The notes under the pieces: model-generated
The model's input: the letters and a program-made list of their open reading frames with translations, nothing else
Databases searched by the model: none
Told to the model about the DNA's origin: nothing
Position numbers and translations under genes: made by a program
Source: a virus
Reading direction: 5' to 3' (one strand)
DNA: 64,000 nucleotides
IMG/VR virus record: IMGVR_UViG_3300029343_000516
In this document: positions 12,499-39,694 of the stretch, piece by piece
Layout of the letters: each line of letters starts with the position of its first letter
Position numbering within the stretch: position 1 is the first letter of the stretch

Positions 12499-12499
12499 A

Positions 12500-17551: not shown

Positions 17552-17995
17552 TCACCTCTTACATACCAAAATCTCAACATCTGTATCCGCAAAAATGTTT
17601 TTAATCTGTTCAGAGACATCATTCCAGTTCAATCTATCTAAGCCACAACCAATTACAGGCATTGCAATCTTCTTGATATTATTCTCCAAACAAATCTGTT
17701 TCATCTTTTCAAGTGCAAGTCTCATTGTAATTGTTGTTGGTTTGTGAAAATATCTCTCTTTTGTAATAAGATTTAATACCCTATCTTCTAATAGACAATC
17801 ACCACCAATCCTCTTATGAGTATACCGGTCAAAATAATATGGATATTTTGTCAGCAACCTTCTCTTCATATCAAACCTTTTATTGAACTCAACTACAATT
17901 CCTTTACCCATTCCAAAATCTGCACTGATACAATGTGCTAAATAATAATCTTCTGGTACTGTAAACAAGTCTTTATTTTCTTCTCTATATTTCAC
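17552..17995 (-). CDS. macro domain protein, Poa1p/TARG1(OARD1)-type ADP-ribose-1''-phosphate phosphatase / ADP-ribosyl hydrolase
   Basis: [19 protein letters not shown] and [21 protein letters not shown] align closely with human OARD1/TARG1 ([40 protein letters not shown]). 147 aa. Confidence 0.8.
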   Translation of the reverse strand: [147 protein letters not shown]

Positions 17996-18432: not shown

Positions 18433-19173
18433 TCACATCCATTTATCAATCTCGCTAAACACATTGCCTAGCGAATCAACAATCGTCAGATCCGTATCTT
18501 CATTCATTAACACTTGAATTTTTTCCCTATTGATAATAACCAAATGCCTACCACTGAAATACGAAATATAATTCGCTGCTGGATAAACTTTTAATGAAGT
18601 GCCACCAATAATCAACATTTCAGCATCTCGAATGGCTCTGATTGCCCTATTTACCGCATCATTAGGAAGATTTTCTCCATATAAAGTTACGTCAGGTCTA
18701 ATCAGACCACCACATTCACACTTTGGGATAGCTTCTTTAGTGTTAAACAAGAAATCTGAATGATATTCCATTTTACATTTACTACAATAATTCCTCTGAG
18801 TAGTTCCATGAATTTCAAATACATTCTTACTGCCAGCTTTTTGATGAAGCCCATCAATGTTCTGTGTAACAATAGCCTTCAACTTACCTATTTCTTCCAT
18901 CTTAGCAAGTACCTTATGAGTAATATTTGGCTCAATATTTCTTGTATCCATCTTCTGACGATAGAACTCATAGAATACCTTTGGATTGTTATATAAGCAT
19001 TCTCGACTCAAAAGATACTCTGGCTCGTATCTATCAAACTGAACGTCATGCTGATTATATAACCCATCCTTAGAACGAAAGTCTGGAATACCACTTTCAG
19101 TAGATACACCTGCTCCACCAAAGAATACAATATTATTTGATTCTTCTATATATTCTCTTAATTTTTCGTACAT
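18433..19173 (-). CDS. cobB: NAD-dependent protein deacylase, Sir2/CobB sirtuin family
   Basis: GAGVSTESGIPDFR, TQNIDGLH, HG, a Zn-binding Cys4 (CSKC ... CECGG) and GTSLKVYPAA are all canonical sirtuin motifs. 246 aa. Confidence 0.85.
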   Translation of the reverse strand: MYEKLREYIEESNNIVFFGGAGVSTESGIPDFRSKDGLYNQHDVQFDRYEPEYLLSRECLYNNPKVFYEFYRQKMDTRNIEPNITHKVLAKMEEIGKLKAIVTQNIDGLHQKAGSKNVFEIHGTTQRNYCSKCKMEYHSDFLFNTKEAIPKCECGGLIRPDVTLYGENLPNDAVNRAIRAIRDAEMLIIGGTSLKVYPAANYISYFSGRHLVIINREKIQVLMNEDTDLTIVDSLGNVFSEIDKWM

Positions 19174-19445: not shown

Positions 19446-20834
19446 TTAATACTCTATCCAACCATCTGTAATACCAGTCATCCAATAAATAAGATCTTCT
19501 CTATCATTTTTTAATCTTCCATCTATTACACGAGTTAAGATTTCATTGAGCCAGTATCCAACTTCTTTTCCACTTTTAATGAGCATTGTATCCATTACAT
19601 CTTTTCCATTAACTGCTAAATCCTTTAGAGAAAAACATTCATCGTCCTGTAAAACTTCTTCCAAAATATATCCGATATTGTCAATCTTCTGTAATCTTGT
19701 TTCCTGATTAATGTCTGCTTGTGCTTTAATATCAGCTCTACGAACATTTAATAACCTTCTGAACTGTTCTTCTCCAATTTTATTAAGCCATCTCTTGACA
19801 TATTTCTTCCCCATCTCAAAAGTTGTATCATGATAATAAACAAGCTGCACTACTTTTTCTCTTGTATCATTATCAAAACGAAGTCTTTTCATAATTGTAT
19901 CAGTCATATCAGCACTGACTCTTCCATGACCTTTAAAATGTCTAATACCATCTTCTCCATCCTGATAACAATGTGGTTTTCCTATGTCATGAAAGAACAC
20001 CGCTAATGATGTAATTAAATCTATTGAATTTAAGTCGGGTTCACAATCACATTCATAAGCTTGTACTGCATGTACTGTATGATTCCATACATCATAAATG
20101 TGATATGGATTATTCTGTTGAAAGCCAAGCATATCTTTAATTTCAGGAATGAACAACGAGAATACTTCACGGAATAATCCTATCTGTATATAAAACTCGC
20201 TTGATAATGCAATCTTACAGAACTCACTGTTGATTCTCTCAATAGATATATTCTCTAAATTCTTATACATTTTATGAATATTAAAACTCACATCAGAATC
20301 AACCACAAATCCCAGTTGTGAAGCAAACCGAATAGCACGTAAAATTCTTAAAGCATCTTCCGAAAATCTATCCTCTGCTCTACCAACACATCTGATTTTA
20401 TAATGCTCAATATCTTCCATACCATTAAACGGATTTACAAGACCAACTTCATCATTGTATGCCATCGCATTGATTGTAAAATCTCTACGCTTCAAATCTT
20501 CTTTAAGACTTCGTGTAAATGTTACGCTATCAGGTCTACGACTATCTGAGTAATTACCGTCAATTCTGTAAGTGGTGCATTCATATCCTTCACCGTCAAT
20601 TACAATGGTAATAGTTCCATGTTGTAAACCAGTTTCAATAATTCTCTTGTCCTTGAATACTTCCATCATTTCATCTGGTGTGGCAGAAGTTGTAATGTCG
20701 TAATCGTGAATTGGTCTGCCAAGAATACTATCTCTCACTGCACCACCACATAAAAATGCCTCATATCCATTATTCTGTAAAGTATGAATAATTTCATTTG
20801 CACCAGATGGAATTTCAATTTTCAATTTCTTCAT
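19446..20834 (-). CDS. cca: tRNA nucleotidyltransferase (CCA-adding enzyme) with HD domain
   Basis: Class II nucleotidyltransferase head CGGAVRDSILGRPIHDYDI (GGxVRD...DxD), HD motif FFHDIGKP. 462 aa. Confidence 0.8.
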   Translation of the reverse strand: MKKLKIEIPSGANEIIHTLQNNGYEAFLCGGAVRDSILGRPIHDYDITTSATPDEMMEVFKDKRIIETGLQHGTITIVIDGEGYECTTYRIDGNYSDSRRPDSVTFTRSLKEDLKRRDFTINAMAYNDEVGLVNPFNGMEDIEHYKIRCVGRAEDRFSEDALRILRAIRFASQLGFVVDSDVSFNIHKMYKNLENISIERINSEFCKIALSSEFYIQIGLFREVFSLFIPEIKDMLGFQQNNPYHIYDVWNHTVHAVQAYECDCEPDLNSIDLITSLAVFFHDIGKPHCYQDGEDGIRHFKGHGRVSADMTDTIMKRLRFDNDTREKVVQLVYYHDTTFEMGKKYVKRWLNKIGEEQFRRLLNVRRADIKAQADINQETRLQKIDNIGYILEEVLQDDECFSLKDLAVNGKDVMDTMLIKSGKEVGYWLNEILTRVIDGRLKNDREDLIYWMTGITDGWIEY

Positions 20835-25035: not shown

Positions 25036-26619
25036 CTACTCAATAATCTTAAATGATACATCTGTTCTTCTATTCATTGCACGATGTTCCTCTGTATCAT
25101 TATCTATTACAGGATTGCTTGAACCGTTACCAACAGTTACGATTCTATCTGCTGAAATACCATTCATAATGAAGTAATTCTTAACAGCTTCCGCTCTCTG
25201 GGCTGATAACTTCTGATTGTACTCGTCCTGCGGATCTGAATTTGGATTAGGATCTGTATTACCAGCAATCTCAATAATTGCTCCATCGAGTACATTTGCA
25301 ATATCAATAAATTTATTAAGCTCCTCGGATGCGGCGGCTGAATCTGTAAACTGGGCTGTATTCTTATTAAATGTTACCGAAGCAGATCCACTTAATAATG
25401 CCTCCGTATCCTGTACTTCCTGCTTATTATCATCTGTTACCTTTACTGTGTCTGTGTTAGATACATCTGTAGCATTAAACTTGTCTGCAATGGCATTAAT
25501 ATATGTATCATCAAAAATTGTATCTACTAAATCAGCATTTACAGTCTCACCAATTGATGTCCAAACATTGCACATATCTGAATAAATAGTCTTTGCTGTG
25601 CCATTTAATAAATCAGAATTGTCTTTCCAAGTTGTGAGTTTTGCAGTAGCTGCACTTCCTGCAATATCTTCATCAGATGCAGTATTGAACATTGGCATTA
25701 CTTCTCTGATTGCTGTAAACTCATTGTCGTACATATCGGATGCTTCAAGAGAACCCTGAACAAATTTCTCTACTATCTCTGGATATGCCTCTGCAAAATT
25801 CTTATCAAATAAAATTCCATCCATTACAAGATTTGTTGAGCTTGCTGTACTAAATAATACATGTGCATCTGTCATATTCTGTGCCTGTGTTAAATAAGGC
25901 TCCCATGTAGCAGCTACATCAACTTGTCCTGCAAAAAATGCTTTTGCTGTATCATCTGCTGTTGAGAATAATACAAGATTATCAATAATATCAGATTTCT
26001 CATCGTCTGATAAATCAGAATTATTAACAAACCAAATAACTAATGTCTGTGCCTCTGAAAACTCAGGGACACCAATTTTTGCACCAACTAAATCTTTTAC
26101 TGAATTAATTGATGATTTGGCAATAATACCATCACCACCATTTGAGTAGTTTGTAATATATGGCATAATTACATCTTCACCAGCTTCTGTAAACTTTTGT
26201 GATAAAAATGCTGTTCTATTGATTGTATAGCCTGCCGCATTTAAATCACCTTTAATAAGGGCGTTGCTTGACTGTGTAGCATCATTAATAACATTGATAT
26301 TTACATTGATACCGAGTTTTCCATAAATAGAATCTGGCTGTGTTGTAAGTCCACCATTAGCGTCAATAATAGATTTCCAGCCAATCCACTCATCTAATGA
26401 AAGATTAATAGTTCCGTCACTATTAGCTTTCTTTTTATTAGAACTAGAAGATGTTGTGCCAGTTACTTTGTTCCCTGCATTACTTATCGAAGTGTTACTC
26501 TTGGTTTTAATTAACCCTGTCTTTACACCAGCGAAAACACCACCACCAATTAATGCAATAACCAAAACCATAATTAAAATTTTTGAAGCTTTGGTAAGTC
26601 TAAATCTTTTTGTACTCAT
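25036..26619 (-). CDS. ABC transporter substrate-binding protein (NMT1/SsuA-like) fused to a C-terminal OmpA-like peptidoglycan-binding domain
   Basis: N-terminal TM anchor and a periplasmic binding-protein-like middle. C-terminal NQKLSAQRAEAVKNYF...RRTDV is the OmpA/MotB signature. 527 aa. Confidence 0.6.
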   Translation of the reverse strand: MSTKRFRLTKASKILIMVLVIALIGGGVFAGVKTGLIKTKSNTSISNAGNKVTGTTSSSSNKKKANSDGTINLSLDEWIGWKSIIDANGGLTTQPDSIYGKLGINVNINVINDATQSSNALIKGDLNAAGYTINRTAFLSQKFTEAGEDVIMPYITNYSNGGDGIIAKSSINSVKDLVGAKIGVPEFSEAQTLVIWFVNNSDLSDDEKSDIIDNLVLFSTADDTAKAFFAGQVDVAATWEPYLTQAQNMTDAHVLFSTASSTNLVMDGILFDKNFAEAYPEIVEKFVQGSLEASDMYDNEFTAIREVMPMFNTASDEDIAGSAATAKLTTWKDNSDLLNGTAKTIYSDMCNVWTSIGETVNADLVDTIFDDTYINAIADKFNATDVSNTDTVKVTDDNKQEVQDTEALLSGSASVTFNKNTAQFTDSAAASEELNKFIDIANVLDGAIIEIAGNTDPNPNSDPQDEYNQKLSAQRAEAVKNYFIMNGISADRIVTVGNGSSNPVIDNDTEEHRAMNRRTDVSFKIIE

Positions 26620-26634
26620 TCCATTCTCTCCTTA

Positions 26635-27372
26635 TTATTTGTTGTATTTTTTCTTTAAACTGTCTAAATAATCATTACTGCTATTCTTTTTAGCTTCGAC
26701 TTCTGCTTTTGCAAGTTTCGTAGACATCTTGTTATTATGTACTACTTTTGAACCCTCAACAATTGCATCTAAGTCTTTATTCTTATCTCTGACAGAATCA
26801 AGAAGTTTATCAGTTGCAGTTACATTTTTTAACTCGTCCATATCATCATAGACTTCCTGTAACTGTTTCTTCACTTTCATATTCTCCACAACTTCCTTAC
26901 TTTCTCTCTTTAATTTGCGGAGATTCTTTTCACACATTTCCTGTGCTTCTTTTGCAGTGTTAGCTGCGTCTTCATATGCTTTAACTAATTCTGAATATCT
27001 CCTGATATCAGCCATAATCTCTTCTCTCTCATCAGCTTTTAACTGTGCTAACTCTATCTTATTTGCTTTTACAAGAGATTCACATTCAGATTCGACCTTC
27101 TCAAGCTTTGCTTTGAGATTCTTCATATCTTTTTGTGCATTGCTTAATTTACCAGCAGCTACCTTGTAAGCATTATCCGCTTTGTTATAAGCGTCTTGTG
27201 CCTGATCAATTTTTTCACCATAAATAGCCTCCGCACCTTCTGGGGTTGTAGCCATATCTTTGATAAACAGTCTCGTAATTCCCGAAAATAATGTTCTTAC
27301 TTCAGGAAATAAAATAAAAATCAAAATAATAACTGCAACTACCAAAATCACAATAAGTTTTCCAAGATCCAT
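26635..27372 (-). CDS. membrane-anchored coiled-coil protein (PspA/IM30-like, tentative)
   Basis: N-terminal TM helix followed by about 200 aa of Ala/Lys/Glu-rich coiled coil. Confidence 0.4.
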   Translation of the reverse strand: MDLGKLIVILVVAVIILIFILFPEVRTLFSGITRLFIKDMATTPEGAEAIYGEKIDQAQDAYNKADNAYKVAAGKLSNAQKDMKNLKAKLEKVESECESLVKANKIELAQLKADEREEIMADIRRYSELVKAYEDAANTAKEAQEMCEKNLRKLKRESKEVVENMKVKKQLQEVYDDMDELKNVTATDKLLDSVRDKNKDLDAIVEGSKVVHNNKMSTKLAKAEVEAKKNSSNDYLDSLKKKYNK

Positions 27373-27902
27373 TAATTGTCTCCTCCTTCAATAAATTTAA
27401 TTAATCCAGAAATTCTACCAACTTCTGTATTAATACTATTCTCTGAAACTTTCATCTCTGACTGCTGTTCAGAAATTTCTTTTTCCAATCTTGCAATCTC
27501 TTTTTTATGATTCTCAATTTCAGTTTCCTTATCAGCGACATTGGCATTTCCATCATCTAAGATTTTTGCCAATACACTATTTAATACATCCACTCTCTGT
27601 TCGCCATCAAGTGTTACATCAGTAACCGTTAAGCCGAACACTCCAAGAGTTGCTAACACTGAACCTCTCTTTGTCTCTGTAACCATTTCTTTTGGAAGAG
27701 AATTAATCAGTTCTTCAATTTTGAAAATTGATTTTGACCTATCAGATAACTCATTCTGAGCATAAATATCATCAATAAGAGTATCTGTATGTACCTCGTC
27801 AAGTTCAACTGGAACTGTACTATCCTCTACAGAATAATCAGTGCCTACATCATAATTCTCTTCTTCTGGAACTTTCTCTACGAAAAAGTCTCTAAATCCC
27901 AT
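27372..27902 (-). CDS. hypothetical acidic coiled-coil protein (176 aa)
   Basis: ORF whose start overlaps the upstream stop within the ABC operon. Confidence 0.45.
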   Translation of the reverse strand: MGFRDFFVEKVPEEENYDVGTDYSVEDSTVPVELDEVHTDTLIDDIYAQNELSDRSKSIFKIEELINSLPKEMVTETKRGSVLATLGVFGLTVTDVTLDGEQRVDVLNSVLAKILDDGNANVADKETEIENHKKEIARLEKEISEQQSEMKVSENSINTEVGRISGLIKFIEGGDN

Positions 27903-27919
27903 TTTGTTTCCTCCTTAAA

Positions 27920-28531
27920 TTAAAATTCTATAATCACGTCACACATTTTTTGTGCTTCTTCTTTGCTATGTGTAACCATAATTATTGTGTTATTTGTTTC
28001 TTTATGCTGCTTGATAATCAAATCTTGCATTTTTTGTCTAGTTTCAATATCTAATGCAGATAATGGTTCATCCATAAGAATTATTTCTGGATTCATAAAT
28101 AATGTTCTTGCCAAAGCAAGTCTTTGTCTCATACCGCCTGATAGTTGTTTTGGATATTTATTTTCGTTATCTTTCAATCCAACAATAGAAATCATTTCTT
28201 TTGCTCTATCAATATCACACTTATTTATTCTCCCTTTGACTTTCTGTGCTATCAGAATATTATCCAAACACTTTAACCAATCAAATGAAGTATAATTTTG
28301 ATGCATCATGTAAATATTATTTTTACTTGCCTTAGTAACTAATTCTCCATTTACAACTACATTTCCACTTAAAGGCTTAATAAGACCTGCGATTGTTCTT
28401 AACAAAGTTGTTTTCCCACAACCAGATTCACCTAATATCCCATAGATCTTAGGATCAAATTGATAGTTGAAATTCTTCAATAAAGGCTTGTCTCTGCTAT
28501 ACCCTGTATATAACTCATTTAACTTAACCAT
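27920..28531 (-). CDS. ABC transporter ATP-binding protein (NitT/TauT family)
   Basis: Walker A GESGCGKTT, signature LSGGMRQRLALAR, Walker B IILMDEP. Confidence 0.85.
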   Translation of the reverse strand: MVKLNELYTGYSRDKPLLKNFNYQFDPKIYGILGESGCGKTTLLRTIAGLIKPLSGNVVVNGELVTKASKNNIYMMHQNYTSFDWLKCLDNILIAQKVKGRINKCDIDRAKEMISIVGLKDNENKYPKQLSGGMRQRLALARTLFMNPEIILMDEPLSALDIETRQKMQDLIIKQHKETNNTIIMVTHSKEEAQKMCDVIIEF

Positions 28532-29270
28532 TTATATACCTCCATTTAAAAATGTGTTTTACTAACCATTTTGCAGAAAAATCAAATATAACACTTATAA
28601 TCATGATTACGATAATAGCCATAAAAACCAAATCTGTTCTTCCTCTTGAAGAAGATTGTTGAATTATATAACCCAATCCATATTTTGCATTAATTGTTTC
28701 TGCTACTGCTATATATGTAAATCCAATTCCATACATCATGATAAAACTATTTAATACTCCTGGTAGAGATGCTGGTATCTGTATTCTCCAAATAGTTTGT
28801 ATCTTATTCATTCCGATTGTTAATCCTGTATCAATCAAATCACTACTGACTTCCTCTAAACATAAAATAACTGAAGGCATCATGTATACAAAAGTTGCGA
28901 TAAATAAAAATACTATTTTCATCATTTCGTCTATACCAAACCACATAATCAGTAGAGGATAAAAAGCTGTGACAGGAATGTATCTCATAACACTGATAAT
29001 CGGATTTAATATATCTTTTGCTACTTTTGAGTTATAAACTAAAATTGCAATAGGAAATGCAATAAATCCTGATACAAAAGTTGCTATAGTTATTCTCAAA
29101 AACGAATATTTAATAGCCATTATCAACTGTCCAGTTTTCAACATTGCAATTAAATCTTTAAATACTGTCTTTGGATCTGGAACAAATAATTGATTTACAT
29201 GTTGTGAAGCAATACTCCAAATTATAAAAATAGTCATTAGTAATGCTATTCTTTTTAAAATAATTTTCAC
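28524..29270 (-). CDS. ABC transporter permease (binding-protein-dependent inner-membrane component)
   Basis: Six hydrophobic segments. 8-nt overlap with the ATPase gene. Confidence 0.7.
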   Translation of the reverse strand: MKIILKRIALLMTIFIIWSIASQHVNQLFVPDPKTVFKDLIAMLKTGQLIMAIKYSFLRITIATFVSGFIAFPIAILVYNSKVAKDILNPIISVMRYIPVTAFYPLLIMWFGIDEMMKIVFLFIATFVYMMPSVILCLEEVSSDLIDTGLTIGMNKIQTIWRIQIPASLPGVLNSFIMMYGIGFTYIAVAETINAKYGLGYIIQQSSSRGRTDLVFMAIIVIMIISVIFDFSAKWLVKHIFKWRYING

Positions 29271-31133: not shown

Positions 31134-31555
31134 TTATTTTTCTCACCTGTTCATGTTTATCTTCTCTCTCATAATTGTAAACACCAACTACTTTTGCTAT
31201 TTCTATGCAACATTCATAATCATCCAAATCAGGTGATTGCAATAACTCAATAATTTTATTTACTTTTTCTTCATCACTCATATTTTCACCTCTTAATCAT
31301 TTCTCAAATTCTTCGCCAGTTGCACAATCATTTTTGACAGGAATTTTATCACTGTTATTTATTTCTTTTATGATATCTTTTGCAAATTTAACTGACATAG
31401 TTCACTTTACTTCCTTGTTAGTCTAATTATCATCTCTACAAGTCTTTCCTTACTCATAGCATGTAAATGCTCTCTCTTCTCATCATCTGAGCAGTTTTTA
31501 ATAATTTTTAAATCACTCTCTGGCATTTTTAATATCCTCCTTATATTTTTTCTAA

Positions 31556-31630
31556 CTAGGCTGGTGGGACTTGAACCCACAAAACCTGCGGTCAAAGCGC
31601 AGTGCGTCTAACCAATTTCGCCACAGCCCA
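31556..31630 (-). tRNA. tRNA-Gln (anticodon UUG), Firmicutes-like
   Basis: Cloverleaf with acceptor UGGGCUG/CAGCCUA (U1-A72, G73), D-loop with GG, anticodon stem CUGCG/CGCAG, loop CUUUGAC and T-arm GUGGG-UUCAAGU-CCCAC. Resembles B. subtilis tRNA-Gln. No encoded CCA. Confidence 0.75.
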
Positions 31631-31673
31631 TTAGAGATGGTGTGGAATTTCACCACACCAAGTTATTCTCTAT

Positions 31674-32551
31674 TTACTGGTCTGAATCAGCATCCTTTGT
31701 AACTACAGTATCGCTACCCTGTACTGTAACCCATCCATGTTTAAGTCTTGCTTCTGCCTCTTTCATACGAATGAGCTGATCAGTAATTGAACTGTTAATC
31801 TTTGCATTTGCGTCTGCCTCTGCCTCTGCTGCGATAACCTTTGCGTCTGCATCACCCTGAGCTTTTGTAACCTCTGCTTCAGCGTCAGCTTTTGCCTTAT
31901 CAATATTTGTCTGATTCTGAATTGCCTGAGTCTCTGCGTCCTGTTGAGCCTTAATCTTAGCATTTATAGCTTTCATTGTATCTTTATCCACATCAATATT
32001 GATTAAAGATACGTTGCTAATTGTAATACCATACGGCTCAAATTTCTTTGCAAGATAATCTGAAACTGCACTATTAATATTCGCTCTTTCAGAACCAAGA
32101 ATATCGGATACTTTGTAATTTGCAACAATCTCTTTAGTCCAAGAAACAATATTAGGTTTGATAAAACTATCTCTTACCTCTTTACCACTCTGACCTTTAA
32201 ATCTTGTAAAAACGTCTGCAACACTATTTTGTTTATACTGGTATGTATAAGTAAGCTCTAAAGTCATTGACTTACCCTCTGATGAACTTGCTGTAAAACT
32301 ATCATCGTCTGGTGAATCTCCTTTTTAGAAGCTGTTAGATATGACTGCTCAAGACCAACTGTATATAATGTTGTCTTTACCATTGGACTCTTCCAATGCC
32401 AACCTTGATCAAGTACCTTTTTCTCTACTCCACCGTTCGCATTGTACTGAACTGCTGCATAGCCAGCAGGTACTCTTACTAAAGATTTCATACATATGAT
32501 TACTCCAATTACAAGTACAATTGCTGCTACAAATCCTCCTAGTTTCTTCAT
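31674..32551 (-). pseudogene. SPFH/band-7 (HflK/C-flotillin-like) membrane protein, split by a frameshift
   Basis: The N-terminal TM plus VPAGYAAVQYNANGGVEK..GWHWKSPMV (ORF 32264-32551) and the rest of the SPFH domain plus an Ala/Gln-rich coiled coil (ORF 31674-32267) are in different frames. The junction is at an A5 run near 32300. Confidence 0.55.
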
Positions 32552-32707
32552 TCTTTTGTCTCCTTTTCATCTTTATTTATTTCTTCTATCACACTATTTT
32601 TTATTATCTTATAGATAAATGAGCCTATTTTTGTAAAAAATGGTGACAGTAAAAACCATAATATTAATAGTCCTATAATGACCAAAATCATCAAAACTGA
32701 CATTTGA

Positions 32708-33103
32708 TTATTCTCCTTGTTTTAATGTTGATATTCCTAATTTCTCTTCTAATTTTCTTTTTTCTCTTTCCATTTTATTTAATTTAATTATCAAAGAATC
32801 ATAGTTATTAATTACATCACAAGCTGCCATCATACTTTCTGCTAAATTTCTTATATATTCTTCTTCATGGCGGTAAATCTTCTGTAAGTCTTTAATATTT
32901 GTTTGCCCATTAAAAATTTTTATCAATACATTTGCTAATTCTTTTTGATTATTTGGTGAATAATTAAAATTCACGCTCCAAGAAAAAGGAATATTGGTTA
33001 ATTTTTCTATTCTATTAATTTCAGTTTTTAGGCTATTTATTTGTACACAAGTTTCTCTTAGTTCTTCTAATAGAGATTGCTCTTTATTCTTTTTATCAAA
33101 CAT
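32708..33103 (-). CDS. hypothetical coiled-coil protein (131 aa)
   Basis: ORF flanked by two unlisted small TM-peptide ORFs (32590-32706 and 33115-33246). Confidence 0.45.
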   Translation of the reverse strand: MFDKKNKEQSLLEELRETCVQINSLKTEINRIEKLTNIPFSWSVNFNYSPNNQKELANVLIKIFNGQTNIKDLQKIYRHEEEYIRNLAESMMAACDVINNYDSLIIKLNKMEREKRKLEEKLGISTLKQGE

Positions 33104-33238
33104 ATTATTACCTCAACAACAAATATTTTAACCAATCAGGTATATCAGCATTTACAACCATACTAAATATCCCAATGTTTGCTAATATAGCGAGTATCGT
33201 AATTACTATAAATATTCCTATAATAAATAACTTATCTT

Positions 33239-33460
33239 TCATATGTATTTATTCTCCCCTTGCCAACTTATATATCCAAGTATCAACAGTTTCTGTAAAT
33301 CATTGCCATGAAAACCTGTTACATCGCAAAATGCACCAAGTATTTCTGTATCTTCATGTGTTATTGCATGATAATTTACACTATTACATTCTTCTAAGTG
33401 ATTCATATTTCCATTTTGGAAAAATGTGTCTTGTAATATTTCATATTCAGTATTCGTCAT
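33239..33460 (-). CDS. hypothetical protein (73 aa)
   Basis: ORF in the array. Confidence 0.4.
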   Translation of the reverse strand: MTNTEYEILQDTFFQNGNMNHLEECNSVNYHAITHEDTEILGAFCDVTGFHGNDLQKLLILGYISWQGENKYI

Positions 33461-33694
33461 ATTTTATGCACCATATCTTTCCAGTTCATCTAAAATTTTC
33501 TCAGCTTTAATATTGTGTTCATCACATTTTTTAGATAATAGATTCATTATCGAAACATAAAATTTTATCACCGCAAGATGAAATCTAAATCTAACTTCGT
33601 TCATACTCATCCTCCAAACATTTCATGCCGTATAACCATTCAGAAAATCCAACGACACCTGCGACCAATGTAATTTCCAAAATCCATTCCATAT

Positions 33695-34171
33695 CTATAA
33701 CCTCTGATTCTTGGCAATACGTTTAATTTTCAAATCTTTTGGAATATCCATTGGTCTGAAATCAGACCTTATAATCCTTGATATAATTACTGGCTTAACA
33801 CCACATTTGGTATAACACATGACTATATCTCCTACCGATATATTCTCCATAAACATATTCCATTTCTCAGAAGTCGGAACTCTCCAAACGTATTCTTTAT
33901 CACTCTGCTGATTTGGGTGCTTGCCATATATGTATGTAACTACTTTTTTATTCTCTCTTTCATATCTATATTGTTTGACATGTTCCACATCAAACTCTTT
34001 AAGCACTAAATATCTTATGTATCCATCTACCAATTCTTTTTTATGGTTGATTATAATTGGCTTGTCCAGTTCTCCATACTTAAGGAAATATCTCTTTACT
34101 CTGTTCATCTTTGCCTCATTTGGTACAGACTCGGCAAGATAATCTGGGATTATAATGTCTGCTAACTTCAA
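33695..34171 (-). CDS. ParB-like nuclease (ParB/Srx fold) domain protein
   Basis: ELVDGYIRYLVLKEF resembles the ParB N-terminal DGxHR box. 158 aa. Confidence 0.4.
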   Translation of the reverse strand: MKLADIIIPDYLAESVPNEAKMNRVKRYFLKYGELDKPIIINHKKELVDGYIRYLVLKEFDVEHVKQYRYERENKKVVTYIYGKHPNQQSDKEYVWRVPTSEKWNMFMENISVGDIVMCYTKCGVKPVIISRIIRSDFRPMDIPKDLKIKRIAKNQRL

Positions 34172-34199
34172 TTTATTTGTTCTCCTTTATTTTATGTAT

Positions 34200-35648
34200 T
34201 TATGCATTTGCCATCTTATCAAAACTTCTCTTCATGAAGTCATAATTTACCTTCTGTGAAGAGCTAAATTTCTTCTGATTTTTGTATTTATTAATCCATT
34301 CCTCAAACTTGTCCTCATTCTCATTCTTGCAAGCATAAGCCATTAAAGCAATTAATGCCATCTGACACTTCTGATATAGTGGAATATCTATTTTTATCTG
34401 ATTATGATTAAAACAATACTCAACTAAATCTGTATATTCTTCAACATCCTCATTTGTCACTTCAGAATCTGCATTCTCCTGAACAAAGGAAAGAATGCTT
34501 TCTTCCGTATTATCTTCAACATTTTCTTCCGTATTATTATTCTCTATTTCCTTGCTATTTGTTTCTGCTGTATCAATATATAAAAAATCGTTCATCAAAG
34601 CTGTATATGTATTAATTTTAGCAACTACAAGTTTTTTATCTGTAGTACCAGACTCTTTATTTAACGAATCGTAACTGACACCATTAACATCAATACTATG
34701 TAATTTTCCTGATAACTCATGAATAAAATCTGCAAACTTGCTATCTTCTAAACCACATTTTGCAAATCTACTAAATACTGTCAGCCATACAGGAATATCT
34801 TTTTTAACAAGAATATCTTTACAAGTATCTTTACAAGCCGCTTCGATTCTTTGAAAATATTCATGGATTGTATTAAACTCTTCGATATTACTGTTATCTT
34901 CGAGATAATCACATATTTCTTTTGCACCACGTTTATAGTCATCAAAATGAAAAACATTCATAACAGATCTGCATACACTCTGCATATATTCTCCGTTTTT
35001 TCTGGCAGTATCAGAATACTCAATACTATTTTTAAAGAATCCTTCATCGGCAATGTTTTTAATTTTTCTTGCATATGTAGGAATCCAAGTCAACGCTCTC
35101 TGACTTGTATTCATTCCTCTTTGTACATTCAATTTTCTTACCAATTTACTTACCTTTTTCATATCACAATTTTGATATGTGGCAATTCTAAGCTGATAAT
35201 TGTCAAATCGTTTCTTCAGTTCTTTTGGAAAATCATCATATGTTTTATTTTTAATATCAAATGTTTTCTTTTCCCATACAAAATTCCCATCATCATCTTT
35301 TAGAAATTTACCATTTTCGTCTACTTGCTTTTCCTGGTACTCAATTTCACTATCTTCAATAGCACCAGTAAATTTATGATTTCCATATCTAATCTGCATC
35401 AATGCGGTTGTTCTCTGAAGACCATCTACAATATATTTCTGTACAATATCTTCATTTAAAGGAATTTCGGCTAAAATTAAAGGTGGAAGATAATCACCAG
35501 TTAAGATCGTAACACCGATTCCATTAACAAATGGTTTGTCGCTACAGAAATACCTCTGTACATCCTGATTGTCATTAACATCTCCATCTTTTACCTCACT
35601 GGTATAGTTAATCAATGGAATATTTTCTTCTCTTACTTTCTTTGCCAT
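34200..35648 (-). CDS. DGQHR-domain (DndB-like, ParB/Srx superfamily) protein
   Basis: VDGLQRTTAL matches the DGQHR signature. 482 aa with an acidic C-terminal tail. Confidence 0.5.
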   Translation of the reverse strand: MAKKVREENIPLINYTSEVKDGDVNDNQDVQRYFCSDKPFVNGIGVTILTGDYLPPLILAEIPLNEDIVQKYIVDGLQRTTALMQIRYGNHKFTGAIEDSEIEYQEKQVDENGKFLKDDDGNFVWEKKTFDIKNKTYDDFPKELKKRFDNYQLRIATYQNCDMKKVSKLVRKLNVQRGMNTSQRALTWIPTYARKIKNIADEGFFKNSIEYSDTARKNGEYMQSVCRSVMNVFHFDDYKRGAKEICDYLEDNSNIEEFNTIHEYFQRIEAACKDTCKDILVKKDIPVWLTVFSRFAKCGLEDSKFADFIHELSGKLHSIDVNGVSYDSLNKESGTTDKKLVVAKINTYTALMNDFLYIDTAETNSKEIENNNTEENVEDNTEESILSFVQENADSEVTNEDVEEYTDLVEYCFNHNQIKIDIPLYQKCQMALIALMAYACKNENEDKFEEWINKYKNQKKFSSSQKVNYDFMKRSFDKMANA

Positions 35649-35667
35649 GAGTATTTCCTCCTTATGT

Positions 35668-36228
35668 TTACATTAAAATTTTTACATTCTCATATGCTTG
35701 AATAGCTGCAAGATTATTAGAATATTGTTTGCTATCCATATGTAATAATTCTCTGATTTCCTTTGCCTTATATCCTTCAGATAACAAAGCAACTATTTTC
35801 CGTTGATTATATGATAATTTATTCAAATATCTTTCTATCTTTGTGCCTTCAAGCATATACTCAGCAACAAGTTCATATGTATTAAAATCTGATGGAATTA
35901 ATTCGCTTAATTCCATACCATCCTCTGATACCAAACTATTGATTGAATCAATCTTCTTCGCAGGAATTCGTTTGTTACGATTACGATCACGAATTTCAGT
36001 TTTAAACTTTCGTTTAATGTTGCTGGCTAAGAATGAATCAAAACTGCATTGATTTTTTTCATCATATTTAAAAACCGAATAACTAAGTGTATCTAATGCA
36101 ATGTCAAAGAAATCATCATAATCCTTATCAGATATGCCACCTATTTTGATTATCATTGGAAGACACATTTTCTTGAGCATAGCCATTTCGTTGTTACAGT
36201 AATAGTTAAGTGTTTGTTGTATATCCAT
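35668..36228 (-). CDS. sigma-70 region-4-like / HTH regulator (possible phage sigma factor)
   Basis: C-terminal RKIVALLSEGYKAKEIRELLHMDSKQYSNNLAAIQ is a sigma region 4/LuxR-type HTH. 186 aa. Confidence 0.45.
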   Translation of the reverse strand: MDIQQTLNYYCNNEMAMLKKMCLPMIIKIGGISDKDYDDFFDIALDTLSYSVFKYDEKNQCSFDSFLASNIKRKFKTEIRDRNRNKRIPAKKIDSINSLVSEDGMELSELIPSDFNTYELVAEYMLEGTKIERYLNKLSYNQRKIVALLSEGYKAKEIRELLHMDSKQYSNNLAAIQAYENVKILM

Positions 36229-36253
36229 TTCATTACTCCTTTGATTTTGATGT

Positions 36254-36532
36254 TTACTTATTCTCTGTTTCGTTCACTTCAATTATTCGATATGTATATT
36301 TTCGGTTGAATAATCCATTTATTGCTTTTTGTGTTCTTTCTTTGCTGACTTTAGTGGTGTCTACTTCAGCAATTACATTATGTATAATGACCATCTCATC
36401 TTTGAGGTTACGTCTATTTTTTCGATTTGTACGAATTCTCTTATAGAATATCCAGCCTCTGTAGAGATCAACTGGCTTTTCCAACTCTACTTCATGTAAG
36501 ATATCTATCAATTCTTCGTCAGCTCGCTTCAA
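36254..36532 (-). CDS. hypothetical protein (92 aa)
   Basis: ORF. Confidence 0.4.
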   Translation of the reverse strand: MKRADEELIDILHEVELEKPVDLYRGWIFYKRIRTNRKNRRNLKDEMVIIHNVIAEVDTTKVSKERTQKAINGLFNRKYTYRIIEVNETENK

Positions 36533-36604
36533 CTCAATTTCGAGTTCTTTATATCTTTTTGCTGCATCACTAAGAATTCGTTCACATTCGCCAAACTTAT
36601 CAAC

Positions 36605-36880
36605 TCAAGACTTAACTGATTCAGCAACTTCATATCCATCATTACCTTTAATTGATACTTTAGTTGCTTTAACAATTCTCTCAACTGATGTTTCCATCTT
36701 AATATCAGGTATACATTCCAATTTAAAATGTAAACGTCTCATAGATTTTGGTAGATGCTCCAAGATATTTTCTGCCTTTTGCTTTTGAAATGTGTCTCTT
36801 GTTTTCTTTGTACAAGCAATTGGTTGTCCATTATTGAGCCTTATGTATACACCATTGTTGTTTACAATTGCGTATTCCAA
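36605..36880 (-). CDS. hypothetical protein (91 aa)
   Basis: ORF. Confidence 0.4.
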   Translation of the reverse strand: MEYAIVNNNGVYIRLNNGQPIACTKKTRDTFQKQKAENILEHLPKSMRRLHFKLECIPDIKMETSVERIVKATKVSIKGNDGYEVAESVKS

Positions 36881-36912
36881 TTTCTATCACCCTTTCTTCT
36901 TATTTATAATAA

Positions 36913-36969
36913 GAGGCATCAAGGAGTTGAACCTTACATAATTTGACTTTCCTGTAAAGCTGATGCCTC
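36913..36969 (-). ncRNA. tRNA-like minihelix lacking an anticodon arm
   Basis: 8-bp acceptor-like stem GAGGCAUC/GAUGCCUC, a small hairpin CUUU-ACAGG-AAAG and a T-arm-like AAGG-UUCAACU-CCUU whose loop fits the TΨC consensus. 57 nt, too short for a full tRNA. Confidence 0.35.
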
Positions 36970-37099
36970 ATCCGTTAGTGGATTAAACTATGGTAGAACT
37001 ATAGCAGCTACACATTCTGCTCTTACAAGGCAATATGTATGTACAAAGAAACAAGTACCTTGCGTACTGCACTTACATCGGGTGTGATTCAGTGCATAA

Positions 37100-37171
37100 C
37101 GGGGCTACTGGGATTCGAACCCAGAAATACATGGATCAAAACCATGTGCCTTGCCATTTGGCGATAACCCT
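37100..37171 (-). tRNA. tRNA-Gln (anticodon UUG), E. coli tRNA-Gln-like
   Basis: AGGGUUAUCGCCAAAUGGCAAGGCACAUGGUUUUGAUCCAUGUAUUUCUGGGUUCGAAUCCCAGUAGCCCCG is near-identical in architecture to E. coli tRNA-Gln (AUCGCCAAG...GGCA, loop UUUUGAU, T-arm CUGGG-UUCGAAU-CCCAG). A1·C72 mismatch, G73, no CCA. Confidence 0.75.
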
Positions 37172-37229
37172 ATAATTTATTAAATTTTGATTAAATATGT
37201 GAAAAATATGCTGAATTGCTTGAATTTAA

Positions 37230-37258
37230 TTGACATTCCATCAATTTATATGTATTAT
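37230..37258 (+). promoter_or_regulatory. sigma-70-like promoter TTGACA-N17-TATTAT (plus strand)
   Basis: Consensus -35 hexamer and near-consensus -10 with 17-nt spacing in a non-coding region. Confidence 0.45.
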
Positions 37259-37264
37259 AATTAT

Positions 37265-37363
37265 GAGCGTATTCCAGTACGTTCATAATACAATTCAACC
37301 AAATATTTTTAGGAAAGTCGAGCTAGTGTTCCAGCACTATGATGCTCGGCTTTCTCTTTTTGT
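37265..37363 (+). ncRNA. candidate small RNA (promoter to terminator, about 90-100 nt)
   Basis: Bounded by the promoter at 37230-37258 and the terminator at 37314-37363. No credible ORF. Confidence 0.3.
37314..37363 (+). terminator. rho-independent terminator (10-bp stem AAAGUCGAGC/GCUCGGCUUU plus U-tract)
   Basis: Perfect 10-bp stem, structured loop, followed by CUCUUUUUGU. An A-tract on the other side means it could also terminate the minus-strand gene ending at 37478. Confidence 0.6.
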
Positions 37364-37477
37364 ATCTCACATTTTATATATTAGAACGTTCGTTCGATTT
37401 TGTCAATACTTTTATCGAACATTCATTCTGTTTTTTATATAATATCACGTTACGAGTCCCAAATTCTGCTCTCGTAA

Positions 37478-37744
37478 CTATTTTCTTGAAAGAATTGTAT
37501 GTAAATATCCCCTTGGCGTTTCTTCTTGGATTTCTGAAAAAACTTTAAGCCCATTGGAAAATTCATCACATACCCTTGCGATGCTTGCAGCTTCTTCCAA
37601 GATATTTGTGCAGTCGCAAAATTTCTTTTTACAAAATCCAACATTCACATCAGGTTTTGCTAAATCCTGCTTCGCTACTAATACAATAGCATCTTTTTTT
37701 GCAAACTTTTTCGCTTCTTCCAGCGACATTTTAATATATTCCAT
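37478..37744 (-). CDS. hypothetical protein (88 aa), co-transcribed with the MazF-like toxin (possible cognate partner)
   Basis: Start is 2 nt after the toxin stop; CxC pair. Confidence 0.4.
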   Translation of the reverse strand: MEYIKMSLEEAKKFAKKDAIVLVAKQDLAKPDVNVGFCKKKFCDCTNILEEAASIARVCDEFSNGLKVFSEIQEETPRGYLHTILSRK

Positions 37745-37745
37745 A

Positions 37746-38108
37746 TTAAGCCTCCTCTAATTGCCCGAAATTAGCATCGTATACTGCTTTGACTTTTATT
37801 TTCTCTTGTAATTTAGTGATAGTACCTAACTTCTTCATTATTCTCTTTTTTGAAACTTGCCTAACGCATTCACCAAGAATCATTGAATCTTTAGTTAATC
37901 CTTTGCCTAAATCCTTATGAAAGAAAGAATGTGTCGGTTGCTGAAGATGTTTTATTTTACTTGTAAATGGAATTACAATTGTTGTATCAGAATAAATATT
38001 GCCATAAGCATTCTGAATTACAACTGCTGGTCTTATACCGCCTTGCTCTCCAGCAAAGACCACATCTCCGAAATCAACTCTTACAATATCAAAAGTATTT
38101 ATTTCCAT
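37746..38108 (-). CDS. mazF: MazF/PemK-family endoribonuclease toxin
   Basis: FDIVRVDFGDVVFAGEQGGIRPAVVIQN and ILGECVRQVSKKR match the PemK/MazF fold signature (GDIV.VDF.....E..K.RPAVVIS). 120 aa. Confidence 0.65.
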   Translation of the reverse strand: MEINTFDIVRVDFGDVVFAGEQGGIRPAVVIQNAYGNIYSDTTIVIPFTSKIKHLQQPTHSFFHKDLGKGLTKDSMILGECVRQVSKKRIMKKLGTITKLQEKIKVKAVYDANFGQLEEA

Positions 38109-38257
38109 ATATCACATCCTCCTTTCTTATATTGAGTATTCATAACTACCTTGGATTACCTTTGATACTTCGTATTATATACCTATACATATTATATGTC
38201 AACATATAATATTGAAAAATATAATATTTTTTGATATTATATTAATAAGTAATTCAC

Positions 38258-38476
38258 ATGGAGGTATTATATATGAAATTAAATGTGAAACAAATTCTTG
38301 AAAAACAAGGCAAAACTCCATATTGGTTATCTAAGGTTACAGGAATTTCTAACAATAATATTAGCAATATTTGCAATGGTGACACAAAAAGTATTCGACT
38401 TGACACCATTGAGAAAATATGTCATGCACTAAATTGCACACCAAATGATATTTTCACCAACGACACTAATAAATAA
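38258..38476 (+). CDS. XRE-family HTH transcriptional regulator (Cro/CI-like, 72 aa)
   Basis: HTH_3 pattern QGKTPYWLSKVTGISNNNISNICNG. The only convincing plus-strand gene. Preceded by GGAGGT. Confidence 0.65.
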   Translation: MEVLYMKLNVKQILEKQGKTPYWLSKVTGISNNNISNICNGDTKSIRLDTIEKICHALNCTPNDIFTNDTNK

Positions 38477-38669
38477 ATTTAACGAGATCAAATGGTTGCA
38501 CTTCCATTGCTTTAGCAACCAAATCAAGTACAGCTAAGTCAGGAACAGCACTTCCATTTTCCCATTTACTGATTGTACTTGGTGCAATGTCAGACATTTT
38601 CGCAAGCCCTCTTACTGTTATTCTCTTTTCAGTTCTGATTTTCTTTCCAATATATTTAACCATAATCAC
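38466..38669 (-). CDS. XRE-family HTH transcriptional regulator (67 aa)
   Basis: ITVRGLAKMSDIAPSTISKWENG HTH_3 pattern. Convergent with, and overlapping, the plus-strand HTH gene. Confidence 0.6.
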   Translation of the reverse strand: MIMVKYIGKKIRTEKRITVRGLAKMSDIAPSTISKWENGSAVPDLAVLDLVAKAMEVQPFDLVKFIY

Positions 38670-39694
38670 ATCTCCATCAATTTCTCTTTCATTCCAACAG
38701 CTCCGTTTGCATAATTATTAACTGTTGTATTTACACTACTATGCCCCAACTGTTGTTGCACAAATGCAAGATTTCCATTCTGATTCATTATACTAGCATA
38801 ATAATGTCGCATCATATGTGGAGTAATACCATTTCCATAATTCTCAAATATCTGTTTGATATTTCTTTCCGTGGTACGTGTGCCATTCTTATTAATAAAA
38901 ACTGCTTCTTTGTCTACAATATTATTCAATGTGTTTCTATACTCTAGCCATTCTCTTAATGCTTTCAGAGCAGATCCAGTAAGATATACAGGTCTTTTTT
39001 CAGTTTCTCTTTGATATCCTTTTGGTAAAACCATAATATGTGACATATCATTAAGATCAATATATTCACTATTTTCATCTAAATGCAAATCTGATAAATC
39101 CAAACCAGCAAGTTCAGACTCTCTTATTCCAGTTCCTCTTAAGACACGAAAAATAGCAATATTCCTATTCCTTACACATTCATCCTTTTTCCACATTATT
39201 TTTTCTTCCATACCATTAAGCTGATTTTCTGTTGGAAGTTTTTGTGTTAAGTTGTTTTTAGAAGATATCCCTTTATATTTTATTTGTTTACTAAAATCTT
39301 CCATACTGTTATAAAGTTCTCTCAATAAACATTCTCTATATGAATATACATTTTTTATAAAACTTTTTATAATATTCTTTCTTGTTTCCGTTGTGGTTGG
39401 CGACATTCCATTTGTTTCCTTATATCTAAGGTATGAACTAATATTTTGTGGTCGCAAGTCGCTAAAATCAGAAACTTCTATTTCAGAAATTGATTTCTTA
39501 TTAATAATATTACTTTCAATCAACCACTGTAAAAAATCTTTAATTGCTACTAAATAATTTAACGCTCCGTTCTTGCTTTCCAACTCATTCAAGTAATCTC
39601 TTAAAAACTGTGGTGCATTTAACTCATCCAACTTCCTATTAAGCTTTTCAGCATTTTTATTTTGCACTTCTATCTTATAACACATAATTATCAC
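38666..39694 (-). CDS. int: tyrosine site-specific recombinase / integrase
   Basis: Catalytic R (VLRGTGIRESEL), HxxR (HMMRHYYAS), LGH box (LGHSSVNTT) and the Tyr nucleophile (NNY). 342 aa with an N-terminal SAM-like domain. Confidence 0.85.
   Translation of the reverse strand: MIIMCYKIEVQNKNAEKLNRKLDELNAPQFLRDYLNELESKNGALNYLVAIKDFLQWLIESNIINKKSISEIEVSDFSDLRPQNISSYLRYKETNGMSPTTTETRKNIIKSFIKNVYSYRECLLRELYNSMEDFSKQIKYKGISSKNNLTQKLPTENQLNGMEEKIMWKKDECVRNRNIAIFRVLRGTGIRESELAGLDLSDLHLDENSEYIDLNDMSHIMVLPKGYQRETEKRPVYLTGSALKALREWLEYRNTLNNIVDKEAVFINKNGTRTTERNIKQIFENYGNGITPHMMRHYYASIMNQNGNLAFVQQQLGHSSVNTTVNNYANGAVGMKEKLMEM

Follow-up and report, generated by a model that had tools for sequence, protein, structure and literature searches.

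Two tRNA-Gln(UUG) genes on one phage element

The viral record IMGVR_UViG_3300029343_000516 comprises a 64,000-nucleotide stretch of DNA (hereafter the window) that carries two genes for tRNA-Gln with the anticodon UUG, tRNA1 at 31556-31630 and tRNA2 at 37100-37171, both on the minus strand. ARAGORN called each as tRNA-Gln with anticodon ttg (31556-31630 and 37099-37172) and reported no other tRNA gene in the 64 kb, while the Rfam model RF00005 matched them at 56.9 bits (31556-31630) and 56.6 bits (37100-37171) against a gathering score of 29 (E ~1e-10). The agreement between ARAGORN and Rfam bears out the central claim of a preliminary description of this DNA, that the element has two tRNA-Gln(UUG) genes with the same anticodon, and the tRNA prediction software that it had proposed as a check called both genes.

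The two tRNAs were found to differ throughout. In tRNA1 the acceptor stem opens with U1-A72 and G2·U71 and the anticodon loop reads CUUUGAC; in tRNA2 it opens with A1·C72, contains U5·G68, and the loop reads UUUUGAU. These end pairs and loops had been correctly recorded in the preliminary description. The discriminator base is G in both, and both anticodon loops have seven nucleotides with UUG at positions 34-36, flanked by U33 and A37. The minimum-free-energy fold of tRNA2 is the cloverleaf, with A1·C72 the sole non-standard pair marked by cmscan. Neither gene encodes CCA, since the bases directly 3' of the genes read TTAG... in one case and TTAT... in the other. As also described before, the element does encode a CCA-adding tRNA nucleotidyltransferase with an HD domain (19446..20834, minus strand), which is identified by Pfam PolyA_pol (3e-36), the PHROG tRNA nucleotidyltransferase profile (2.5e-69) and the NCBIfam equivalog NF009814 (318 bits, cut-off 290).

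At 69% identity, the two isoacceptors fall into distinct sequence families, which we call type B (tRNA1, subtype B1) and type A (tRNA2), and the earlier suggestion that they belong to separate lineages is thereby upheld. To follow these families we used 157 related IMG/VR loci (contigs of up to ~218 kb; individual loci are denoted L with a number), which were found via two anchor proteins; all counts of slots and gene content refer to the 63 full-length loci anchored by a recombinase gene. In the relatives, 99.7% of the stem cells of type A were paired and compensatory double changes occurred in 12 of 20 pairs, the corresponding values for type B being 97.4% and 7 of 20. With stems that are paired and co-varying, both tRNA types are under structural selection. 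The tRNA1 sequence itself is identical in L006, L078, L118 and L287-L289.

Two conserved slots and the origin of the two lineages

Across the phage family, no tRNA is as common in this genome region as tRNA-Gln(UUG): at least one copy is present in 48 of the 63 loci, two copies in 7 and none in 15. These genes occupy two distinct places. Type A, present in 32 of the loci, starts at a near-constant distance of ~1.4-1.6 kb past the end of the gene for an Xer-like tyrosine recombinase, a gene that the other 31 loci keep without type A. Type B lies 45-53 nucleotides behind a gene of the SPFH family in every locus that has both this tRNA and SPFH. Subtype B1 goes with an SPFH protein 97-99% identical to that of the window, and subtype B2 with one of ~71% identity; B2 is usually followed by a tRNA-Lys(UUU) gene. 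Types A and B2 were almost never found in one locus, and B1 occurred only together with A. Among 2.9 million IMG/VR contigs the B1 sequence is present in just 9, each of them from this phage family, and the lineage of tRNA1 thus appears to be specific to that family.

How the window came to hold both types can be read from its close relatives. The SPFH/Band 7 module that carries tRNA1 (31674..32703, minus strand; Pfam Band_7 2.4e-15, phrog_200) consists of an open reading frame (ORF) for a 51-amino-acid membrane protein (32548-32703, minus strand) and the SPFH gene, which is split in the window into parts of 95 (32264-32551) and 197 amino acids (31674-32267, both minus strand) and is intact, with 292 amino acids, in L288 and L289. 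Relative to L079, L082 and L095 the SPFH-tRNA1 module (~31548-32697) is a clean insertion or deletion of 1.15 kb whose junctions lie at short homologies resembling ribosome-binding sites, and L290, which has tRNA2 and an identical DUF262 protein, lacks the module altogether. Because of this clean boundary and the absence from L290, the tRNA pair of the window appears to be a product of ordinary phage module shuffling at a gene boundary. An island of 5.5 kb bounded by tRNA-Gln direct repeats was also considered and rejected, as the two tRNAs are only 69% identical and the sigma-like and DUF262 genes between them are kept in 63 of 63 loci irrespective of the presence of the tRNAs.

For the origin of type A, one genome per bacterial species was scanned with the A1-type 5' half as the pattern, which returned at least 120 loci (L158-L277); the pattern fixed the D-loop as AAGHGG, so that host alleles with the AAATGG D-loop of the window would be missed. 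The listed loci belong mostly to Lachnospiraceae (Acetatifactor, Agathobacter, Waltera, NK4A144, MA2020) and in part to tRNA arrays of Vibrionaceae. In Lachnospiraceae the tRNA-Gln(UUG) gene belongs to an operon of the chromosome with the order Pro-Gly-Arg(UCU)-His-Gln(UUG)-Lys(UUU); among the many carriers of the A1-type gene in this operon, Acetatifactor muris, NK4A144, MA2020 and Waltera hominis are isolates. Since the gene lies in their chromosomal tRNA operon, A1-U72 is the native state of Lachnospiraceae tRNA-Gln(UUG). In the tRNA arrays of Vibrio and Photobacterium, some tRNA-Gln(UUG) copies also begin with A1-U72.

Several phage alleles are very close to these chromosomal genes. The type A allele of L009 and L127 is identical at 72 of 72 positions to that of Agathobacter metagenome-assembled genomes, and other phage alleles are 1-5 nucleotides away from it. 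Overall, type A alleles lie 0-15 nucleotides from the nearest sampled host allele, as counted in indel-free alignments only, and tRNA2 of the window is at the far end of this range with 15 of 72 positions different. For the tRNA2 allele itself, a metagenome scan for a host donor found it in this phage only. Taken together, these comparisons suggest that type A is a captured, Lachnospiraceae-derived tRNA-Gln(UUG). The labels given to the two genes in the preliminary description do not survive this comparison: tRNA2, called E. coli-like, belongs to a type whose A1-U72 start and D-arm are those of the tRNA-Gln(UUG) encoded on the chromosomes of Lachnospiraceae, a group of Firmicutes, and tRNA1, called Firmicutes-like, belongs to the subtype restricted to the nine contigs of this phage family.

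The canonical identity set of bacterial tRNA-Gln, as read by E. coli GlnRS and bacterial GatCAB, comprises U1-A72, G2-C71, G3-C70, G10 and G73 (PMC2811023). Of the window genes, tRNA1 has the canonical first pair but G2·U71 behind it, and tRNA2 departs from it with A1·C72; in the type A family, 31 of 37 unique sequences have A1-U72. The chromosomal A1-U72 of Lachnospiraceae likewise departs from the U1-A72 read by GatCAB (PMC2811023). Because A1-U72 is native to the Lachnospiraceae gene, the first pair of the tRNA2 family departs from the textbook set and not from the presumed host. Lachnospiraceae, with Agathobacter-like species as the best candidates, are most probably the hosts of this phage.

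We observed that the type A gene varies more than the DNA around it. The window and L118 are 98% identical over 429 nucleotides upstream and 95% over 400 nucleotides downstream, but only 76% within the tRNA, and tRNA identity falls below 85% in 12 of the 62 type A allele pairs whose two flanks are at least 93% identical. The 43 phage loci compared contain 8 anticodon-stem variants, as against 4 (2 of them dominant) in the 77 listed Lachnospiraceae species, and at least 10 T-stem variants. The stem changes keep pairing and the cloverleaf is retained. Two types of anticodon arm and two types of T arm exist among type A alleles in all four combinations, and the L118 gene joins a window-like 5' part to a 3' part like that of L080. 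Given this re-assortment of arms and the L118 mosaic, recombination takes place inside the 72-nucleotide gene. No such hypervariability was seen for type B.

The tRNA2 allele of the window stands apart among the type A variants: its arms were seen nowhere else and its A1·C72 is the only mismatch in the family, accounting for the only 2 unpaired cells among the 580 stem cells of type A alleles. The same allele is present in L287, L288 and L290, with one T-loop base changed in L289 and one base different in L079 and L082, and it is also found in two metagenome contigs of the same phage (L291 and L292). As it recurs across assemblies and metagenome contigs, the allele is real and stable. In the 77 listed Lachnospiraceae the host-lineage anticodon loops are CUUUGAC (69 of 77) and UUUUGAU (8 of 77), and both loops of the window are identical to these.

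A separate feature of some type A alleles is G3·U70, which occurs together with the UUG anticodon in 9 of the 37 unique sequences (for example L003 at 15885, L118 at 12516 and L006 at 15215) and in none of the 77 listed Lachnospiraceae chromosomal alleles. G3·U70 is the universal alanine identity pair. Type A is also often trailed in relatives, although not in the window, by a tRNA with anticodon CAU, ~160-330 nucleotides downstream (for example L083 at 12802 and L084 at 12807). The same backbone bears the anticodon AAU in 5 loci, which suggests that this is an isoleucine tRNA (lysidine-type Ile2) and not a methionine tRNA.

Codon supply and its alternatives

Phage tRNAs are common, and their purpose is debated between codon supply and counter-defence. 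Large virulent phages such as T4 (with a cluster that includes tRNA-Gln), T5 and the Bastille/SPO1-like phages carry tRNA genes that are read as codon compensation. The genes of the window resemble these in being complete genes among the accessory genes of a large phage genome that also encodes a CCA-adding enzyme, and in decoding an A-ending codon in an AT-rich phage with a presumed mid-GC host. We consider it probable, though well short of certain, that both tRNA-Gln(UUG) genes are functional, that they stem from separate lineages and were brought together in their two slots by module exchange, and that their products, matured with the aid of the CCA-adding enzyme, boost CAA decoding in a Lachnospiraceae host with a preference for CAG.

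What is established are the two genes and their slots, the conservation of the tRNA structures, the relationship of type A to host tRNAs and the absence of a junction, and the account built on them runs as follows. The phage family maintains two separate conserved slots for tRNA-Gln(UUG). The first, behind the Xer-like recombinase, XRE and MazF-like genes, would have received a host-lineage copy (type A) that has since diverged through compensatory changes and recombination within the gene; the second, 45-53 nucleotides behind SPFH, holds type B, whose tRNA-Gln lineage was met in no other phage or genome than those of this family. Most relatives fill one slot only, and the window lineage would owe the filling of its second slot to a shuffling event that placed the SPFH-tRNA module at a gene boundary. 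The tRNA genes would be transcribed together with the minus-strand genes, trimmed by host RNase P and 3' nucleases, completed with CCA by the phage or host enzyme, and charged through the glutamine pathway of the host. During infection, the enlarged tRNA-Gln(UUG) pool would then read CAA, and CAG by wobble, in a presumed host where CAA is rarely used. Expression, charging, supply function and host identity are what we infer in this account.

Codon counts lend qualitative support to this reading. The window was previously described as CAA-heavy, which it is not: its ORFs contain 171 CAA and 277 CAG codons, so that CAG makes up 62% and CAA 38% of glutamine codons. Nevertheless, the CAA share exceeds the 22% found in 310 ORFs of 78 listed Lachnospiraceae loci (GC 44.5%), with 26% in a small Agathobacter sample. 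The cognate codon is thus used more by the phage than by its presumed host, and this enrichment fits the classical supply argument.

Several observations weigh against codon supply as a sufficient explanation. The majority glutamine codon of the phage is CAG and not CAA. A much larger gap exists for AGA (67% of arginine codons in the phage, 27% in the presumed host), yet no tRNA-Arg is carried, so that the choice of glutamine would be left unexplained. Across the 21 kb loci of the relatives the CAA fraction shows no relation to tRNA-Gln copy number (0.40, 0.45 and 0.41 for 0, 1 and 2 genes). Furthermore, the greater variability of type A relative to its own flanks is unforeseen by simple supply, and a stably maintained A1·C72 mismatch is not predicted by it either; the host assignment itself draws only on tRNA identity and codon bias. 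In having a codon gap that is exceeded by that of AGA and in the lack of correlation with copy number the window differs from the T4, T5 and Bastille cases, as it does in covering glutamine only, twice in 64 kb, and in placing its genes in separate conserved slots instead of a tRNA cluster.

A rival explanation gives the two tRNAs a role in counter-defence. On this explanation, a defence nuclease, or the MazF-like enzyme of the phage acting in host shut-off, destroys the host tRNA-Gln(UUG), and the phage copies escape and sustain translation: rewritten stems and an altered 1-72 pair would evade cleavage, the divergent tRNA1 would serve as insurance, and the RNA ligase, phosphoesterase and CCA-adding enzyme of the phage would mend cut tRNAs. 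Precedents are documented, since tRNA-Lys of T5 counters PARIS (PMC11464382), tRNA-Tyr of T5 counters the retron PtuAB (PMC11555353), and escape through the anticodon loop has been hypothesized for phage tRNAs (PMC10264068). Like the T5 tRNAs, type A is a diverged phage copy of a host tRNA species. The divergence beyond the flanks and the doubled number of anticodon-stem variants with pairing preserved would be expected under such selection, tRNA-Gln(UUG) is by far the most often kept tRNA here, its UUG anticodon is accompanied in relatives by tRNA-Lys(UUU), and genes of RNA repair type as well as the MazF-like gene are all encoded nearby.

Other evidence speaks against this explanation. Since both loops of the window equal the host-lineage loops, the published loop-escape signature (PMC10264068) is absent, and the divergence resides in the stems and the 1-72 pair, unlike in the counter-defence tRNAs described. 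The matching loops argue against the loop-escape form of the idea of the preliminary description that the tRNA replaces one targeted by a host anticodon nuclease, although the stems of type A do diversify unusually fast. No tRNA-Gln-specific bacterial nuclease was identified in this analysis and, unlike in the T5 cases, no cognate nuclease is known for the window tRNAs. A linkage of the MazF-like gene to type A was ruled out, the former being universal (63 of 63 loci) and the latter present in 32. A PADLOC scan of ten window proteins gave no convincing match (very weak ones for the Sir2 protein and the RNA ligase, E ~7e-4 and ~16 bits and neither with a qualifying stretch, and none for the other eight), type B is not hypervariable, and fast phage evolution combined with recombination could yield the same pattern. 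We therefore regard counter-defence as possible but unlikely. A more specific version, in which the recombinase-proximal slot is an arms-race locus, seems to us rather improbable: there a mimic of the tRNA-Gln(UUG) that the Lachnospiraceae host encodes in a single operon would have its stems and 1-72 pair rewritten, through mutation and intragenic recombination, faster than its surroundings so as to escape a putative tRNA-Gln(UUG)-specific RNase (that of the host or the MazF-like enzyme of the phage), with the SPFH-linked tRNA-Gln as a second copy that does not cross-react.

Should nuclease escape underlie the hypervariability, a defence directed at tRNA-Gln would have come to light in a major group of gut bacteria; otherwise the window has an ordinary pair of phage tRNAs. 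One phage family with two independent tRNA-Gln(UUG) slots, the one fast-evolving and host-derived and the other stable, offers a natural comparison. The data also suggest that Lachnospiraceae (Agathobacter-like) host this abundant and uncultured family of 150-200 kb phages, and they show that these bacteria use an A1-U72 tRNA-Gln, unlike the textbook bacterial U1-A72. Beyond the tRNA pair as such, it is the hypervariable slot with its host mimic and the assignment of a host that make the locus of interest.

Redundancy followed by decay, in which one copy matters and tRNA2 with its A1·C72 and U5·G68 is weakened or dying and passively carried since the arrival of tRNA1, is in our view quite unlikely. 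The mismatch is indeed unique among the type A stems, each B1-bearing genome examined has a type A gene with a stem irregularity (G3·U70, A1·C72 or G·U), and the window also contains two frameshifted protein genes. Decay of these genes does occur, because the B1 copy of L147 has a broken anticodon stem. Nevertheless, the exact tRNA2 allele recurs in several assemblies that were made independently and from different samples, its remaining 19 pairs are intact at a high Rfam score, and L290 keeps tRNA2 in the absence of tRNA1. Moreover, as E. coli GlnRS opens the 1-72 pair of tRNA-Gln, a mismatch at this position need not be harmful.

Temperate phages of the P4, HP1 and L5 type use tRNA genes as attP/attB attachment sites. 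A comparable role for tRNA2, as attP or as the complementing tRNA of tRNA-dependent lysogeny with integration into the host tRNA-Gln(UUG) gene, would make the mosaic 3' parts, A1·C72 and G3·U70 scars of exchange with host tRNA genes. A tyrosine recombinase and two XRE regulators do lie 1.5 kb upstream of a full-length host-type tRNA-Gln, the allele of one relative equals an Agathobacter chromosomal gene, L118 joins two allele types, and a tyrosine integrase with a phage tRNA of the same isotype is documented for tRNA-dependent lysogeny in actinobacteriophages (PMC10865867). We nevertheless judge this very unlikely. No relative of the recombinase was found in the 185,579 species-representative genomes of GTDB, no bacterial flanks or host tRNA operon lie next to the recombinase in any of the 157 viral loci, and 116 of the 120 listed bacterial A1-type loci share just tRNA-sized similarity with the phage. 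The enzyme resembles the dimer-resolution recombinases XerS and XerC and is located on the 5' side of the tRNA, about half of the relatives keep it without type A, and the anticodon and T arms of the window allele were found only in this phage and in no bacterial context. The window differs from phages with a tRNA attP in that no integrated form was found in the genomes scanned and in that tRNA2 is a full-length gene whose entire cloverleaf evolves as a unit. It holds a recombinase and a same-isotype tRNA, but no attB, common core or lysogen was identified, and nothing positively supports the arrangement of tRNA-dependent lysogeny (PMC10865867) here. The earlier proposal that one copy is the host attB tRNA at a prophage junction failed every test that was run, and a junction at 37100 can be dismissed: composition is uniform (G+C fraction 0.30-0.35, GC skew negative throughout) with minus-strand genes on both sides of the tRNA sites, neither tRNA 3' end has a second copy in the 64-kb window with up to 3 mismatches allowed, the flanking genes on either side are phage genes that recur in >100 related viral contigs, where the tRNA is far from the contig ends, and no phage DNA was found beside host-type tRNAs in the listed loci from one bacterial genome per species.

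Stop-codon-recoded gut phages such as Lak and crAss-like phages carry suppressor tRNAs, and the present family likewise consists of gut phages with a tRNA-Gln-derived gene. In the type B slot of L152 (17035-17185) a single change has turned UUG into UUA, the ochre-suppressor form, where sister contigs have UUG. Unlike in the recoded phages, both window tRNAs have the sense anticodon UUG and the window reads with code 11; recoding in L152 was rejected too, as the 21 kb examined are free of TAA-for-Gln substitutions. A tRNA-Lys-like gene next to type B in L150 (17104-17178) and L152 has an 8-nucleotide anticodon loop.

The phage and the neighbouring features of the window

The window has a G+C fraction of 0.30-0.38 and a negative GC skew across its length, with every substantial ORF on the minus strand; the ORFs read normally with code 11 and cover ~88% of the DNA. 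No cultured close relative was found, a megablast of 9 kb against INPHARED giving no match, and protein matches to known phages go no higher than ~60% identity (Bacillus and Clostridioides phages). At that level, a 685-amino-acid protein matches proteins of Bacillus Bastille-like myoviruses and of the Clostridioides phage pCD1602_4. An identical DUF262 protein is recorded in 98 blocks of public assemblies and, together with the 157 IMG/VR loci, this argues for a family of abundant, uncultured large phages. Judged from its genes, the window appears to be the accessory-gene arm of an AT-rich gut phage of ~150-200 kb that is distant kin of Bastille/SPO1-like myoviruses.

Around the tRNA genes, a permissive Rfam search of 31200-37600 found no structured RNA besides the two tRNAs. 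A G+C-rich stable hairpin (31638..31660, minus strand; dG -18.1 kcal/mol, z -4.56) separates the stop codon of SPFH from tRNA1; it has no T-run, ends 8 nucleotides short of the tRNA 5' end, and may be a processing or attenuation element. Upstream of tRNA2, a promoter-like site (TTGACA-17-TAATAT, 37378..37406, minus strand; a consensus match only) is located in an AT-rich intergenic region, and the 100 nucleotides preceding the gene are strongly conserved among relatives. For the 219 nucleotides 3' of tRNA2, the predicted fold was not more stable than those of shuffled sequences (z -1.6). Between the two tRNAs lie core phage genes, all on the minus strand, for a DUF5839 protein (33695-34171), a DUF262/GmrSD_N-like protein (34200-35648) and a sigma-70-like factor (35668-36228). 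An ORF at 36254-36880 is split into 91 and 92 amino acids in the window and has 208 amino acids in the near-identical assemblies L288-L290; this split and that of the SPFH gene are frameshifts, either real or due to assembly errors.

The recombinase cluster occupies 37746-39694. It consists of the MazF/PemK-like endoribonuclease upstream of tRNA2 (37746..38108, minus strand; Pfam PemK_toxin 5e-19, PHROG MazF-like growth inhibitor), two small XRE-type helix-turn-helix genes (38258-38476 on the plus strand and 38466-38669 on the minus strand; Pfam HTH_3/HTH_26) and the Xer-like tyrosine recombinase (38666..39694, minus strand; Pfam Phage_integrase 4e-27), which has a GTG start and lies ~1.5 kb upstream of tRNA2. 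The minus-strand XRE gene tracks type A, being present in 27 of the 32 loci with this tRNA and in none of the 31 without it. For the recombinase, the best NCBIfam matches were XerS and XerC, both below cut-off, and the best full-length plasmid matches were XerS on Bacillus megaplasmids at 27% identity; at least 80 IMG/VR contigs encode it with an identity of 70-98%. This cluster of a recombinase, two regulators and a MazF-like toxin, with pCD1602_4 among the nearest relatives, hints that the phage family might persist as an episome (phage-plasmid) and not in an integrated form.

Further genes of the window include Dam and Dcm methylases. A metallophosphoesterase (748-1320, minus strand; Pfam Metallophos, PHROG phosphoesterase 1.5e-44) adjoins an RNA ligase (1310-2236, minus strand; Pfam RNA_ligase 4e-21, PHROG RNA ligase 1.4e-47), the two belonging to phrog_547 and phrog_548, and they could work beside the CCA-adding enzyme as a pair that heals and seals RNA ends. 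A 75-amino-acid ORF (44526-44753) gave a weak, sub-threshold AcrIC5 match (E 1.4e-5, 25.6 bits, cut-off 27). An ABC transporter cluster (25036-29270) comprises a substrate-binding protein with NMT1/THI5-like and OmpA domains, a PspA/IM30-like protein, an ATPase and a permease. Since just 1-3 related loci have this DNA, the cluster has the appearance of an insertion particular to the lineage. Finally, genes for an NAD (nicotinamide adenine dinucleotide) synthase (9917-10654), an NMNAT-like cytidylyltransferase (10671-11297), a NAPRTase (11290-12621) and an isochorismatase/nicotinamidase-like protein (13692-14201) make up a complete nicotinamide-to-NAD salvage set and, with a phosphatase-like protein (17552-17995) and a Sir2 protein (18433-19173) close by, this set may represent an NAD-replenishing counter-defence kit.

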